DNA from: Escherichia virus TH15
Length of the DNA stretch: 64,000 nt
Direction: 5' to 3' (one strand)
Sequence record: MT446392.1
The translations under genes and the position numbers were made by a program. The first letter of the stretch is position 1. Each line of letters begins with the position of its first letter. Under the pieces are notes generated by a model. It had not been told where the DNA came from and did not search any database. It saw nothing but the letters and a program-made list of their open reading frames with translations. Shown piece after piece: positions 4,635 through 62,757 of this stretch.

Positions 4635-5639
4635 ATGTTTAAGAAATATAACAGCCTTGAAAATCACTATAACAACAAGTTCATTGAAAAGATTCGCCTG
4701 CAAGGCTTCACCAGCGGTGAATGGGTAGCTCGTGAGAAAATTCATGGTACCAACTTTTCATTAATTATTGAACAAAATAATGTGACATGTGCGAAACGCA
4801 CTGGACCTATCCTACCTGCAGAAGATTTCTATGGCTACGAAATTGTACTCAAGAACTATGCAGATTCCATTAAAACTGTGCAGAGACTTTTACAGGATAT
4901 TAATTACCAATCATACCAAATTTATGGTGAGTTTGCTGGTACAGGTATCCAGAAGAATGTGGATTATGGCGACAAAGATTTCTATGTGTTTGATATCCGC
5001 GTTACTAAGGAAGATGGCTCTGAATCTGTTTTGACTGATTCATTGATGGAAGCCTTCTGTATTATCCATAAATTTAAGGTTGCCCCACGCCTGGCTACGG
5101 GTAGTTTTGAAGACTTGATTAAGCTCCCTAACGACCTGGATTCTGTGGTTCCTGATTACAATTTTACAGTAGATAATGCGGGTTTGACTACCGCGAATAC
5201 CACCGATTTTGACGCAAAGGTTGAAGGTAAAGTATTCACTGCAGAAGGGTATGTTCTTAAACCTGATACTCCTGCCTGGTTACCTAATGGTGAGCGCGTA
5301 GCGATTAAATGTAAGAACTCTAAATTCAGCGAAAAGAAAAAGTCTGATAAGCCTATCAAGGCTGCTGTTGTGTTGTCCCAGGAAGACCTGGACATTTTAT
5401 GGAAGTTTACCGATTATGTGACTGTTAACCGTATCAATAATGTTATCAGTAAAATTGGGGAAGTAACGCCAAAGGATTTTGGAAAGGTAATGGGTTTGAC
5501 TGTTCAAGATATTTTGGAAGAAGCGGGTCGGGAAGGCCTTGAATTAACCCAAACGGAAAATCCTGTTGAAGTTAAAAAGCAACTCATTGCAAATGTAAGA
5601 GATACATTAAGACATGTTTGGATTGCATTAATTAGTTAA
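4635..5639 (+). CDS. rnlB: RNA ligase 2
   Basis: 334 aa; MFKKY..LENHYN.KFIEK...[18 protein letters not shown]...[16 protein letters not shown] matches T4 Rnl2 as remembered; nucleotidyltransferase KxHG lysine motif. Confidence 0.92.
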
Positions 5640-57339: not shown

Positions 57340-57599
57340 TTGAAGATATCAAAGGTTACAAGCCACATACCGACGATAAAATCGGTAAAGTGAACGCTAT
57401 TAAAGATGCAGAAGTTCGTCTTGGATTGATGTTTGATGCTCTGATTGAAGAAGCATATATCTTGAAAGAAAATGAAACAGAGCAACAAACCAAAGAAGAT
57501 ATGGATGCAGTGCAGGCTCTTAAGTATGCTAAGCAACATCTAAAAGAAGCCAGCATGTGGGCATGTCGTGCAGTATTTCGACCCGAGGAAAAATACTAA
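57336..57599 (+). CDS. hypothetical protein
   Basis: 87 aa. Confidence 0.45.
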
Positions 57600-57904
57600 T
57601 GGCGCAGATTAATTCTGGTTTTGGTTATGAGTTATCAACCGCTTCTCATCGCCGCATAAATGATTCCAATCCGTTTGGATTCACATCGAAACAGCCAAAA
57701 ATTCAAAGTCTAGACGATTTCCAGGAAGTTATTCGTAAGGCCTTTCAGGACTACGGGAACTATCTTAAAGAAGATTCAAACGACTGTCTTGAAGAAGATG
57801 AAATTGCTTACTACGAGCAACGCCTTGAACAGCTTAAGAATTTGCACGCTGTTCGTGCCGAAGTCTCACAATCATTAAATAAGCTAATTCGTTTTAAAGA
57901 ATAG
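57599..57904 (+). CDS. hypothetical protein (start at ATG overlapping upstream stop)
   Basis: 101 aa. Confidence 0.4.
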
Positions 57905-57940
57905 TGTACAAGCAGGTTGAAATGAGTTATGATTATCCCA
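57904..57940 (+). promoter_or_regulatory. early promoter GTGTAC / TATGAT followed by TATCCCATCAAAC leader
   Basis: Read directly. Confidence 0.4.
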
Positions 57941-57960
57941 TCAAACAAAAGGAGATAATC

Positions 57961-58419
57961 ATGACTACTATCGATTCAAGTGTTTACATTCGCCGCAATA
58001 AACTTCGTCGTATTTTTGAAACGGAGTTCCTCAAAATTAATAATGCTATCAACAAGGCTTGTAAAGAAGCAGGCCTTGAAGCATTCTTCATTAAGTACAG
58101 TCCACACCTGTTGGACCGTGCAATCCAACGTGAAATTGACGAACAATATGTTTTTGACTTGTTTGGAAAAATCACACCACATGTAAAAGAAATTGTTGAA
58201 TTCCTGGAGATGAAACCACTCCCGGAAGTTGAAGCACAAATTGACCCGAATGTGAACTACCGTCCACTTCGTCTGGAAATCACAGACAAGAACCTATGGT
58301 TAGGAATGACAGTTAACCCAGCTCTTCCTGGGAAGTCTCCAACCATGTGTTGTCGTATGGCGTTTGTTAACTCTAATCGTCTGGAAGGAAAAATTAGCAC
58401 AAAAGTGATTTATATCTAA
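57961..58419 (+). CDS. hypothetical protein
   Basis: 152 aa from ATG 57961, SD AAGGAG. Confidence 0.5.
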   Translation: MTTIDSSVYIRRNKLRRIFETEFLKINNAINKACKEAGLEAFFIKYSPHLLDRAIQREIDEQYVFDLFGKITPHVKEIVEFLEMKPLPEVEAQIDPNVNYRPLRLEITDKNLWLGMTVNPALPGKSPTMCCRMAFVNSNRLEGKISTKVIYI

Positions 58420-58429
58420 TGGGGAATTC

Positions 58430-58972
58430 ATGAAAAAAGTAATAGCCACTTTACTATTGACAGTTAGTATGTCTGCCCATAGCGTAGAGCCTACTTTCAG
58501 TAATGAACAGATGGAAAATCTTCAATATGCGTATGCATTTGGAGAACAGTTCCAGAAAAATGGTAAGTACAAAGAAAATCCGCACCAACATAATGGTTTG
58601 GGATATATCATGGCTGGATTAACCTGGCAGGAAAGTTCTGCCGGGGTTAATACAGGATTAAATAAAGATAAGCATCATGCATATGGTATATTCCAAAATT
58701 ATCTTCCAACCGTGCGCGAGCGCGTAAAACAGGTTGGGTGGACAATGACAGATAAAGAAATAATCAAGATGATAAGCAAGAGAGAGAACAGTGCACGCTG
58801 GGCTTATATTGAGCTTTCATACTGGTTGAACATTCACAAGGGGGACATAAGAAAAACACTATCATCATATAACGCAGGGTGGAATGTGAAAGCTGGAAAT
58901 ACGTATGCTTCACAGGTCCTAGAAAAAGCTAACTACTTAAAATCACGAGGCCTATTAAAAACGGTGGATTAA
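58430..58972 (+). CDS. secreted lytic transglycosylase-like (SLT domain) protein with signal peptide
   Basis: 180 aa; N-terminal signal MKKVIATLLLTVSMSAHS; motifs QESS, YGIFQ, SYNAG typical of SLT family. Confidence 0.55.
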   Translation: MKKVIATLLLTVSMSAHSVEPTFSNEQMENLQYAYAFGEQFQKNGKYKENPHQHNGLGYIMAGLTWQESSAGVNTGLNKDKHHAYGIFQNYLPTVRERVKQVGWTMTDKEIIKMISKRENSARWAYIELSYWLNIHKGDIRKTLSSYNAGWNVKAGNTYASQVLEKANYLKSRGLLKTVD

Positions 58973-59332
58973 ATGGTAAGAGTCATAACTTTAGCCATAG
59001 GGTTAGTATTCAGCACGGGAGGAATAGCTTCAGTACAGAGCGATGATAATAATAGCATCATAGAATATGCAACGAGGACGGCCAAAGATTATTGTGCATC
59101 AAGCAATGTGGATTGTGTAATCCAGTTTAGTGCCAAACTCACTGCTGCATATAAAGACGGTCAAAATGATGTTGAACACACTCTTATGAAAAAGAGTATT
59201 TTATCCAACAAATATGAAAAGAAACTATTTGAAATGGATTGTATTCTGTCGAGTGCCAAATATAAAGCGGCCTGCACCAGTATGGTTGACAGGTTAGTCG
59301 ATTCCTATAACAGAGGATTGAACTCTAAATGA
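58973..59332 (+). CDS. small secreted protein (signal peptide, 4 Cys)
   Basis: 119 aa; translationally coupled to upstream gene. Confidence 0.45.
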   Translation: MVRVITLAIGLVFSTGGIASVQSDDNNSIIEYATRTAKDYCASSNVDCVIQFSAKLTAAYKDGQNDVEHTLMKKSILSNKYEKKLFEMDCILSSAKYKAACTSMVDRLVDSYNRGLNSK

Positions 59333-59793
59333 TTGTTAACTATATTAAGGGCGATATTGTCGCCCTTTTTCTCGAAGGAAACATCATAGCTCATGGCTGT
59401 AATTGTTTCCATACAATGGGTTCAGGCGTTGCTGGCCAACTGGCAAAGGCTTACCCAAAAATTTTAGAAATGGATAAGACATCAACTGAATACGGTTCCC
59501 GAGAAAAACTCGGTGATATGTCTATCGTTTTTAAACATAAACCAACTGGATTTGGTATGTGCTATAACCTTTATACCCAGTATGAACCGGGTCCAAATCT
59601 GGATTATGGTGCTTTAGTAAATTGCATGATAGAATTAAATCGACAAGCAGAATCCCTTTTGTTCAAGCCTGTGATTTATATTCCCAGGATTGGATGTGGT
59701 ATTGCAGGTGGTGATTGGGATAAGGTTTCCCGGTTAATTGATATGTTTACTCCTGACATTGATTTGATAGTGGTGGATTATGAGTCAAACTAG
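59329..59793 (+). CDS. TARG1/OARD1-like macro domain protein (ADP-ribose processing)
   Basis: 154 aa; blocks YIKGDIVA, IIAHGCNCFHTMGSGVAGQLAKAY and IPRIGCGIAGGDWDKVSRLIDMF resemble TARG1-type macro domains as remembered. Confidence 0.65.
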   Translation: MIVNYIKGDIVALFLEGNIIAHGCNCFHTMGSGVAGQLAKAYPKILEMDKTSTEYGSREKLGDMSIVFKHKPTGFGMCYNLYTQYEPGPNLDYGALVNCMIELNRQAESLLFKPVIYIPRIGCGIAGGDWDKVSRLIDMFTPDIDLIVVDYESN

Positions 59794-59986
59794 TATTCTT
59801 AAAAATGCTCACTGTGAAAAGTGTAAATGGCCAGTTGTTTTTGCTTTATGCAACGATGAAATGATATGTGATTTTGATTATTGGTGCTATTGTTCTAATA
59901 AAGGGTGTGTGAATCATGCAGGCGCCGGTTTCTATTCCGGGTTTCAACCGTATCCAGACTTTGTAAAACAAGGTGAACCGAAATGA
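59780..59986 (+). CDS. small Cys-rich (putative zinc-binding) protein
   Basis: 68 aa with 8 Cys. Confidence 0.45.
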   Translation: MSQTSILKNAHCEKCKWPVVFALCNDEMICDFDYWCYCSNKGCVNHAGAGFYSGFQPYPDFVKQGEPK

Positions 59987-60168
59987 GTTTAAGTATTAGT
60001 CAGAAAAGTAGATTGTTTGAGCTTATCCATGAGCTTTTGGACGAGCATACGGAAGCGAACGCTTTTTATGATGAATACGGCCCGATAGATGCCGAACATC
60101 AGGAAGAATTTGCTAATCGGTTTGATGAGAAAGAAAACGAATTAATTGCTTATGTGAATACTCTTTAA
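59983..60168 (+). CDS. hypothetical small acidic protein
   Basis: 61 aa. Confidence 0.4.
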   Translation: MSLSISQKSRLFELIHELLDEHTEANAFYDEYGPIDAEHQEEFANRFDEKENELIAYVNTL

Positions 60169-60177
60169 GAAGGTGAT

Positions 60178-60750
60178 ATGGCGAGTTTAATTTATCATTA
60201 CGCAGCAATGAATGCAGGCAAAACAGCTTCATTGCTGACTGCAGCTTATTCCTATAAAGAGCGTGGAATGAGTGTGCTTTTGCTAAAACCTGTTATTGAT
60301 AATCGGGACTCGGAATCTGAAATTAAATCACGTATTGGTATTAGCCAGGAAGCAAACCTGGTAACGGCCGACATGAACCTGTTTGAATTCTATAAATGGG
60401 CCGAGTCTCAAAAGGATATCCATTGTGTCCTGGTTGATGAAGCTCAATTTTTGTTACCAGAGCAAATTGACCAGTTAGCACGAGTGGTTGATAATTACAA
60501 TATCCCCGTTATGTGTTACGGGTTAAGAACAGATTTTCGGGGTCAATTATTTCCCGGTTCAGCCAGACTTCTGGCTATTTCGGATAAACTGGTTGAATTA
60601 AAGGGCGTCTGCCATTGCGGCCGGAAAGCAACCATGACCGCTCGAGTAATCGACGGTGCTGCTGTAAAGGACGGCGAGCAAGTGTTAGTCGGTGGGAATG
60701 AATCGTACGTATCTTTATGCAGGAAACATTGGCTCGAATTGACAAGCTGA
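60178..60750 (+). CDS. tk: thymidine kinase
   Basis: 190 aa; MASLI..YAAMNAGK.ASLL.AA..YKERGMSVL.LKP.ID.RDS matches T4 Tk. Confidence 0.96.
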   Translation: MASLIYHYAAMNAGKTASLLTAAYSYKERGMSVLLLKPVIDNRDSESEIKSRIGISQEANLVTADMNLFEFYKWAESQKDIHCVLVDEAQFLLPEQIDQLARVVDNYNIPVMCYGLRTDFRGQLFPGSARLLAISDKLVELKGVCHCGRKATMTARVIDGAAVKDGEQVLVGGNESYVSLCRKHWLELTS

Positions 60751-60757
60751 GGTCCTT

Positions 60758-61033
60758 ATGATATATAAGATTTGGACGTATATCTCTATTTTTGTTATTG
60801 CTGGAATTGCATTTATCCCCACACAAACAGATAGCGAGAGATATGAAAGGGAAATTGAAATAGTAGCAAGCACGTACCATTCTGTTAATAAAGAATGCCC
60901 GAATAAAAATGGAATAAATTTACAAAAAGCACATTATATGCTGACTGTTACTAGCCCAGTGCAAAGAATATGGGTTGATAGACATTTTTCTGATTTATTT
61001 GCAATATATTGTTTCAAGTTTAAAAGATTATAA
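60758..61033 (+). CDS. hypothetical small membrane protein
   Basis: 91 aa, N-terminal hydrophobic helix. Confidence 0.4.
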   Translation: MIYKIWTYISIFVIAGIAFIPTQTDSERYEREIEIVASTYHSVNKECPNKNGINLQKAHYMLTVTSPVQRIWVDRHFSDLFAIYCFKFKRL

Positions 61034-61036
61034 ATA
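61029..61036 (+). promoter_or_regulatory. T4-type late promoter TATAAATA on plus strand
   Basis: Exact octamer 72 nt upstream of lipoprotein ATG 61108. Confidence 0.45.
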
Positions 61037-61107
61037 CAGTTACTAACTAGTATTCCGCTATGTTAAGGCTGCAAAGCGTAATCATGACCAACAATAAGGA
61101 GTCCTTT

Positions 61108-61404
61108 ATGGACCTTATTCGAGGACTTTCTCTAAGTCTATTACTAATGGGCTGTTTAGGCCCAAATCTGTCCTCTGCTACAGATGGTAAATTTACCCAG
61201 TATGCAGATAGTGCGATGCAAATCTATTCGCAATTCAAAGAACCCAGCGTCGAGCAGTCCGAACAATTTTGGGCTTTTATTAAAACCGAATGGAACAATA
61301 AGAGTCAATGTGTAAATGAAATCACATGTCAAATTGATGGCCGGGCTGCTGCAGTCGAATACGCTAAATTAATGAAGGTAAAATTGGAAGATGAAATTCG
61401 ATGA
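61108..61404 (+). CDS. putative lipoprotein (lipobox LLMGC)
   Basis: 98 aa from ATG 61108 with strong SD TAAGGAG; signal plus Cys. Confidence 0.5.
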   Translation: MDLIRGLSLSLLLMGCLGPNLSSATDGKFTQYADSAMQIYSQFKEPSVEQSEQFWAFIKTEWNNKSQCVNEITCQIDGRAAAVEYAKLMKVKLEDEIR

Positions 61405-62317: not shown

Positions 62318-62500
62318 ATGATTACTTTAGAACAAATTGAAAAAATTATTAAACTCGCTCGCGATATTGAAATTGACTCATATGAACTAGCTGTTGAACA
62401 TTGCGAAGGATATTCATATTCTGGGATAGAGCAGTGCAAACGTGATTTAAATGGTTCTAAAGAAAAATTAGTCGCTTATCTAAACGAGTTGAAAGCATAA
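62318..62500 (+). CDS. hypothetical protein
   Basis: 60 aa. Confidence 0.4.
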   Translation: MITLEQIEKIIKLARDIEIDSYELAVEHCEGYSYSGIEQCKRDLNGSKEKLVAYLNELKA

Positions 62501-62757
62501 TGGCTGTTGGATTTGCAAAAGATGGTGCTGAACAGTTAGAGATGGAAGCGGTTGTACAAGCCGCTATCACCCATGCGAGAGCACAGGTTTCAGTTGAAAG
62601 GGAGTCTGCTAAATTCTGTTTTGACTGCGATGAAAAAATTCCTGAAGCGCGGAGACAAGCGATTAAAGGTGTGATATATTGTGTTGGTTGCCAATCAATG
62701 CATGATAAAGTTTTTAAACGTGAGCCACGTAACTGTTGGCATAGGAGCATGAGATGA
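62500..62757 (+). CDS. TraR/DksA-like C4 zinc-finger protein
   Basis: 85 aa; CFDC...17 aa...CVGC. Confidence 0.5.
   Translation: MAVGFAKDGAEQLEMEAVVQAAITHARAQVSVERESAKFCFDCDEKIPEARRQAIKGVIYCVGCQSMHDKVFKREPRNCWHRSMR

Follow-up and report, generated by a model that had tools for sequence, protein, structure and literature searches.

What use might a T4-like coliphage have for a small stand-alone macro domain protein encoded shortly upstream of its thymidine kinase? In the stretch of DNA analysed here (the window: 64,000 nucleotides of Escherichia virus TH15, record MT446392.1), a first-pass annotation had reported a 154-aa ORF at 59329-59793, had likened its product to the TARG1-type macro domains, and had proposed that it counters ADP-ribosylating host immunity or tunes the phage's own Alt/Mod-type modifications. 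The ORF exists exactly as claimed, at 59329..59793 (+), with an ATG start and a 154-aa product, and the interpretation as a whole is partly supported. The product belongs to the T4 Tk.4/AdfM family and, more broadly, to the ALC1/TARG1/DarG class of macro domains; the phage is a T4-like coliphage of the VR7 kind (Gaprivervirus), and the gene is its ortholog of T4 tk.4 (adfM). At a rough probability of 0.75, we take the protein to be an orphan-antitoxin-like DNA ADP-ribosylglycohydrolase that reverses the DarT2 thymidine modification of phage DNA.

Because an in-frame TAA lies directly upstream, the start of tk.4 at 59329 is unambiguous. Its neighbours are vs and tk.3, there is no adjacent darT, and a second macro-domain ORF was found in none of the six frames of the window. 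The order vs.1-vs-tk.4-tk.3-tk.2-tk is common to the window, T4 and VR7, the full T4 order being vs.1-vs-tk.4-tk.3-tk.2-tk.1-tk. The features of the region, as given by gene order, ORF coordinates, the sequence itself and the profile alignment described below, are these:

58430..58972, + strand: vs.1
58973..59332, + strand: vs
59329..59332, + strand: ATGA overlap of the vs stop (TGA, 59330-59332) and the tk.4 start (ATG, 59329-59331)
59329..59793, + strand: tk.4/adfM ortholog, 154-aa stand-alone macro domain protein, stop codon included in the end coordinate
59392..59427, + strand: H22-G33 (HGCNCFHTMGSG), first ADP-ribose-binding loop, holding the invariant H22 and N25
59566..59583, + strand: N80-Y85 (NLYTQY), holding Q84 (59578-59580) at the catalytic-Lys position
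59683..59718, + strand: P119-W130 (PRIGCGIAGGDW), phosphate-binding loop, in which G124 corresponds to SCO6735 G128 and TARG1 G123, and A126 to TARG1 D125
59780..59793, + strand: 14-nt overlap of the tk.4 end and the tk.3 start
59780..59986, + strand: tk.3, Pfam PF23895, phage zinc-binding domain
59983..60168, + strand: tk.2, DUF7438
60178..60750, + strand: tk, thymidine kinase (E = 4.5e-58)

The ATGA overlap is consistent with presumed co-transcription and with translational coupling within the same-strand run from vs.1 to tk, and the genes of this run are probably expressed together. Scans of 57500-61200 found no excess of promoter-like sites (12, against 11.5 expected from shuffled sequence) or of terminator-like sites (2, against 2.7), so the claim of a transcription unit is limited to the overlapping or abutting same-strand ORFs.

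Several neighbouring genes deserve mention in their own right. The vs ortholog directly upstream of tk.4, a valyl-tRNA synthetase modifier, matches no Pfam family at E <= 0.01; in T4, vs was the gene most depleted in minimal medium relative to LB in the HIDEN-SEQ preprint (bioRxiv 10.1101/2025.11.20.689424). The Vs.1 ortholog (180 aa), with a hydrophobic, signal-peptide-like N-terminus, likewise has no Pfam match at E <= 0.01; a weak SLT/lytic transglycosylase similarity of Vs.1 was published in 2006 (PMC1524935), and some relatives carry that annotation. With its 61 aa, the Tk.2 ortholog falls into DUF7438 (E = 6e-16). It also resembles Pfam Unstab_antitox, a family of putative addiction-module components, but at 17 bits this match stays below the cut-off of 23.3; it is probably due to chance, and is recorded solely because tk.2 is the second gene after the antitoxin-like tk.4. 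T4 carries tk.1 between tk.2 and tk (4856..5044 of the T4 stretch compared); it is absent from the window and from VR7, and in the window tk starts 9 nt after tk.2 (60168..60178). Further away, an 85-aa ORF at 62500..62757 (+) matches the DksA/TraR C4-type zinc finger family PF01258 (37 bits, cut-off 24.9; E = 3e-9) and appears, by position and length, to be the counterpart of VR7ORF106c, annotated as a hypothetical protein. The RegB ORF at 57904..58419 (+) was given a mechanical GTG start and 171 aa, but translation probably begins at the ATG of codon 20 (about 57961), because the Pfam REGB_T4 match begins at residue 23 and VR7 regB is 459 nt long. VR7 also has capsid vertex gene 24 twice in tandem, under the names 24(1) and 24(2) (VR7 record 103502..106066).

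The assignment of the tk.4 product to the macro domains is statistically secure. The protein scores 35.1 bits against Pfam PF01661 (gathering cut-off 22, E = 1.4e-8, profile positions 2-117 of 118) and matches PHROG 335 (E = 5e-70). A single-sequence search of solved structures returned matches including Poa1p, BT1257, SCO6735, DarG and TARG1, and with a profile of 60 homologs the E-values were 7e-19 for BT1257, 2e-17 for TARG1, 2e-15 for Poa1p, 4e-15 for SCO6735 and 2e-12 for DarG. The structure, predicted from an alignment made without the T4 sequence, has the three-layer alpha/beta/alpha macro fold and is nearer to BT1257/SCO6735, DarG, Poa1p and TARG1 than to MacroD, viral, PARG or other classes. 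The top Foldseek match is human TARG1/OARD1 (E = 8e-11, TM 0.74-0.82), and Poa1p and DarG are equally close structural neighbours. The TARG1-type macro domain relationship is thus borne out by the Pfam, profile and Foldseek matches. As for the block pattern given in the first-pass annotation, KGDIV, AHGCNCFHTMGSGVA and PRIGCGIAGGDWDKV are present, but the cysteine block reads AHxCxC and not AHxCxxxC.

Not only is the fold secure, the phage family to which the protein belongs is also clear. In T4, tblastn gave a single match, Tk.4, which is 59% identical over 99% of the query and bears the annotation 'tk.4: Tk.4 conserved hypothetical protein'. The statement in the first-pass annotation that T4 itself has no macro domain is therefore wrong, since Tk.4 is an ortholog at the same map position; orthology follows from the full-length similarity, the unique match and the conserved gene order. 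The active-site residues H22, N25, Q84, G122, G124 and W130 are all identical in the two proteins, whereas the sequences as a whole diverge at 41% of positions, the phosphate loop is PRIGCGIAGGDW in the window protein and PRIGAGIGKGNW in T4, and the phages belong to different genera (Tequatrovirus for T4, Gaprivervirus for the window phage). Closer relatives are VR7 (genus Gaprivervirus), VR26 and TH40, to which the window is 95-97% identical over an 8-kb stretch around tk.4. The VR7 counterpart, annotated tk.4 and called 'phosphatase' in RefSeq, encodes a protein with 99% identity over 154 residues; TH40 encodes the identical protein. Across 50,697 phage records searched by tblastn, 2,782 had a match and 2,453 of these covered at least 80% of the query, which gives about 2,450 INPHARED phage records with a near-full-length match. 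The gene is under purifying selection (dN/dS 0.13 against VR7 and 0.25 against T4).

To understand what chemistry such a protein might perform, we compared its active site with those of characterised macro domains. T4 Tk.4, BT1257, SCO6735, TARG1 and PhiKZ AdfM were aligned to the 60-member family profile, and the alignment is taken to be in register because it reproduces the published numbers of SCO6735 (H24, V25, N27, K34, Q85, G126, G128) and of TARG1 (K84, G123, D125); the HMMER and hhalign alignments concur with it. PhiKZ AdfM is off by two positions around K78 in the profile alignment, and hhalign sets K78 opposite Q84. In an alignment of six sequences by MAFFT the central strand was out of register by 3-4 residues, with Q84 opposite non-equivalent residues; this alignment was rejected in favour of the profile alignment. 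The correspondences, from the profile alignment except for K78 of PhiKZ AdfM (hhalign), are:

H22: H24 in SCO6735, H32 in TARG1, none in PhiKZ AdfM
N25: N27 in SCO6735, S35 in TARG1, N23 in PhiKZ AdfM
S32: K34 in SCO6735, A42 in TARG1, A30 in PhiKZ AdfM
Q84: Q85 in SCO6735, K84 in TARG1, K78 in PhiKZ AdfM
G124: G128 in SCO6735, G123 in TARG1, A126 in PhiKZ AdfM
A126: A130 in SCO6735, D125 in TARG1, G128 in PhiKZ AdfM

In addition, G122 aligns with SCO6735 G126. Since the alignments place Gln84 and Ala126 at these positions, the Lys84/Asp125 pair of TARG1 and Lys80 of DarG are absent: Gln84 replaces the catalytic Lys of TARG1 (K84) and of Thermus aquaticus DarG (K80), two residues that have been described as equivalent (PMC9411070), and Ala126 replaces TARG1 D125, the Asp that deprotonates the Lys. 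The loop-1 Asn (N22 in T. aquaticus DarG), which is conserved among DarG homologs (PMC9411070), is present as N25. With Q84, N25, G122 and G124 the protein has the active-site pattern of the Gln-type macro domains, that is, a Gln at the catalytic-Lys position, a loop-1 Asn and a G-x-G phosphate loop. Conservation in the family is strict: Q84, N80 and Y82 are invariant in 121/121 homologs, N25 and H22 are conserved in 119/119 homologs covering the position, G122 and G124 are invariant across homologs, and residue 126 is Ala in 108 homologs, Gly in 11 and never Asp.

The first-pass annotation had proposed checking the catalytic Lys/Asp positions and regarded loss of the catalytic residues as a refutation. 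The TARG1 pair is indeed not conserved, with Gln84 at K84 and Ala126 at D125, but that rule is too narrow, because the residues match the Gln-type site of the active enzyme SCO6735 (PMC9411070). Read from the alignments, the missing Lys and Asp move the protein from the Lys-type macro domains (TARG1, DarG, PhiKZ AdfM) to the Gln-type subclass and leave a hydrolase function unrefuted. We found no mention of a Gln-type active site of the T4-type family in the tk.4/AdfM and macrodomain literature examined.

SCO6735 of Streptomyces coelicolor and BT1257 of Bacteroides thetaiotaomicron represent this Gln-type, ALC1-like subclass and are 26-29% identical to the phage protein. SCO6735 is without the catalytic Lys and Asp, yet it readily strips thymidine-linked ADP-ribose made by DarT off DNA and shields cells from the toxin (PMC9411070). 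Its Q85A and Q85E variants lose all activity, N27S is almost inactive (mutation of the corresponding Asn greatly lowers turnover in DarG), and G128E causes a substantial loss (PMC9411070). Molecular dynamics and mutagenesis led to the proposal of a Gln-positioned, water-initiated mechanism, and an extended mobile loop was proposed to give SCO6735 its high activity on DNA (PMC9411070). The likeness has its limits, which count against our main explanation: the DNA-positioning lysines of SCO6735 are absent from the phage protein (K34 is replaced by S32, and K89 is without a counterpart), and so is the extended mobile loop after the Gln strand, where the phage protein is about six residues shorter than BT1257, whose sequence contains six residues (SKGLPP) that the phage profile lacks. 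Furthermore, SCO6735 and BT1257 are encoded by bacterial chromosomal genes, unlike the presumed counter-defence gene of the phage.

The other relatives share the fold and differ in chemistry or architecture. The DarG2 macrodomain (T. aquaticus 5M31/5M3E, Mycobacterium tuberculosis 5M3I) has the catalytic Lys80 in place of the phage Gln, and DarG2 possesses a C-terminal DarT-binding domain and an adjacent darT, whereas the 154-aa phage protein has neither; against the NCBIfam DarG model it scores 30 bits (cut-off 250), over profile positions 2-138 of 338 only. These four differences rule out DarG proper, and the phage protein is most likely orphan-antitoxin-like, functioning in the manner of DarG2 or SCO6735. 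Human TARG1/OARD1 (4J5Q/R/S) resembles it in size (152 against 154 aa) and in the common blocks KGD, MGxGxA and PRIGCG...W, but is only about 21% identical, has Lys84/Asp125 instead of Gln84/Ala126 and a Ser instead of the conserved Asn25; the absence of both catalytic residues rules out TARG1/OARD1 proper. PhiKZ gp104, independently named AdfM, is like the T4-type protein a phage stand-alone macro domain that counters DarTG2; it removes DarT2-made ADP-ribose from thymidine in a TNTC oligonucleotide in vitro, and an N23A change of its loop-1 Asn reduces that activity (PMC13309987). Unlike the T4-type protein it is Lys-type, like DarG (K78 against Q84), and it is imported into the phage nucleus. 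BLASTP aligns the two proteins over 33 residues (E = 8e-4), and profile comparison gives 24% identity. To judge from their sequences, T4-type AdfM and PhiKZ AdfM are two lineages with a common name and not orthologs, because the T4-type protein has the SCO6735-type Gln/Asn arrangement and not the DarG/TARG1 Lys. Yeast Poa1p (6LFQ-6LFU), an ADP-ribose-1''-phosphate phosphatase, is longer (about 177 aa), and has insertions; its substrate is a free metabolite that arises in tRNA splicing, and the 'phosphatase' label on the phage family probably goes back to Poa1p.

What, then, might the phage protein do during infection? Nolan et al. described in 2006 a match of tk.4 orthologs to the A1pp (macro) domain (PMC1524935), and the evidence for the role of tk.4 in T4 is genetic and comes from a November 2025 preprint (bioRxiv 10.1101/2025.11.20.689424). 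In that work a T4 transposon library was screened on E. coli expressing DarTG2, tk.4 was the single significant gene, a clean tk.4 deletion made T4 sensitive to DarTG2, and T4 without the gene was restricted in M9 glucose at 30 C; tk.4 was renamed adfM, 'anti-DarT factor macrodomain', its structural similarity to M. tuberculosis DarG was noted, and enzymatic removal of ADP-ribose from DNA by T4 AdfM was the authors' inference. This complements the NADAR enzyme AdfN (T4 30.3), which works against DarTG1, the guanosine-specific system (PMC11825919). The suggestion in the first-pass annotation that the protein counters ADP-ribosylating host immunity of the DarTG kind fits these results for the T4 ortholog. 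From them we infer that the window allele has the same anti-DarTG2 role and acts catalytically on DNA; hydrolysis of thymidine-ADP-ribose by T4-type proteins would parallel that by SCO6735 and PhiKZ AdfM. In the proposed sequence of events, host DarT2 would ADP-ribosylate thymidines in phage single-stranded DNA (TNTC motifs) and block replication, and the phage protein would most likely bind the ADP-ribose and hydrolyse the thymidine-ribose bond, restoring replication. The chemistry would probably be of the SCO6735 type and not of the TARG1/DarG type, and would proceed without a catalytic lysine: the distal ribose would be positioned by Gln84, itself kept in place by Asn25, and the diphosphate would sit in the G122-x-G124 loop. 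Against this explanation we also count that the allele is only 59% identical to T4 Tk.4 and lacks the DarG/TARG1 Lys, that RefSeq and PHROG label the family 'phosphatase', and that Poa1p is equally close structurally.

That label raises the question of a metabolic role, in which the protein, as a phosphatase or deacetylase, would hydrolyse free ADP-ribose-1''-phosphate (as Poa1p does) or O-acetyl-ADP-ribose. Database names such as 'phosphatase', 'A1pp' and 'O-acetyl-ADP-ribose deacetylase' speak for it, but they are inherited from the old A1pp domain label and not from assays. Such metabolite activities are common in vitro side reactions of macro domains, and we know of no source of ADP-ribose-1''-phosphate during T4-like infection. 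The sole functional evidence for the ortholog, moreover, is a conditional essentiality specific to DarTG2 (bioRxiv 10.1101/2025.11.20.689424). A metabolic role is therefore improbable. Removal of ADP-ribose from proteins, whether tuning the phage's Alt/ModA/ModB marks or reversing the action of a host transferase on phage proteins, has a slim chance of being the main function. T4-like phages do ADP-ribosylate host proteins, but Alt, ModA and ModB modify arginine, and the literature examined on this macrodomain class describes no enzyme active on arginine-linked ADP-ribose; the proposed tuning of Alt/Mod modifications is for that reason unsupported. TARG1 and SCO6735 act on auto-modified PARP1, which favours protein substrates, but TARG1 has been characterised on acidic-residue (Glu/Asp) linkages, and DarG, an equally close structural neighbour, is without protein activity (PMC9411070). 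The Lys/Asp pair that TARG1 uses for protein substrates is absent from the phage protein, and no alt or mod gene lies near the tk.4 ortholog.

An RNA substrate is very improbable. Several macro domains, TARG1 included, remove ADP-ribose from RNA phosphate ends, and an RNA de-ADP-ribosylase could counter RNA-targeting transferases such as CmdT of CmdTAC, a system that targets T-even phages. However, CmdTAC, which ADP-ribosylates mRNA, strongly restricts T4 despite its tk.4 gene, so a role against that system was rejected; and SCO6735, which also has a Gln-type site, is inactive on 5'-phosphate- and 2'-OH-linked RNA ADP-ribosylation, the discussion in the source paper being inconsistent on phosphate ends. 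It is also conceivable that the protein blocks DarT2 stoichiometrically, by binding the toxin or its ADP-ribosylated product instead of turning the product over. Catalytically dead SCO6735 (Q85A), DarG (K80A) and TARG1 (K84A) all inhibit DarT in vitro, SCO6735 most strongly (PMC9411070), and the classical acid/base residue is absent from the phage protein. On the other hand, the DarG C-terminal DarT-binding domain is also absent, and the 121 homologs strictly retain every residue on which SCO6735 catalysis depends, which speaks against stoichiometric inhibition as the main mode. As the sole mechanism it has little likelihood; it could supplement catalysis and need not replace it. Catalytic reversal of DarT2 modification on DNA is thus the reading that we prefer.

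Because everything essential had already been annotated or published, the gene must be regarded as known: tk.4 has been annotated since the T4 genome, its macro (A1pp) domain was recognised in 2006, and the anti-DarTG2 role of the T4 ortholog was reported in 2025. For annotation, 'phosphatase' or 'hypothetical protein' should be corrected to 'AdfM-like macro domain, putative DNA ADP-ribosylglycohydrolase'. For mechanism, the T4-type family is without the catalytic lysine of DarG and TARG1 and has the SCO6735-type Gln/Asn arrangement, and a catalytically dead T4-type AdfM should accordingly be designed as Q84A or N25A and not as a Lys mutant. More speculatively, T4-type AdfM may be a minimal, lysine-free Gln-type macro domain that serves as a broader eraser, acting like SCO6735 on thymidine-ADP-ribosylated DNA and on ADP-ribosylated proteins and in addition inhibiting DarT2 stoichiometrically, a proposal that we put forward as doubtful. 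If it were true, the family might protect against further, yet-undescribed ADP-ribosyltransferase-based defences, and the same counter-defence would have arisen in phages through recruitment of two macro-domain lineages that differ in their chemistry.
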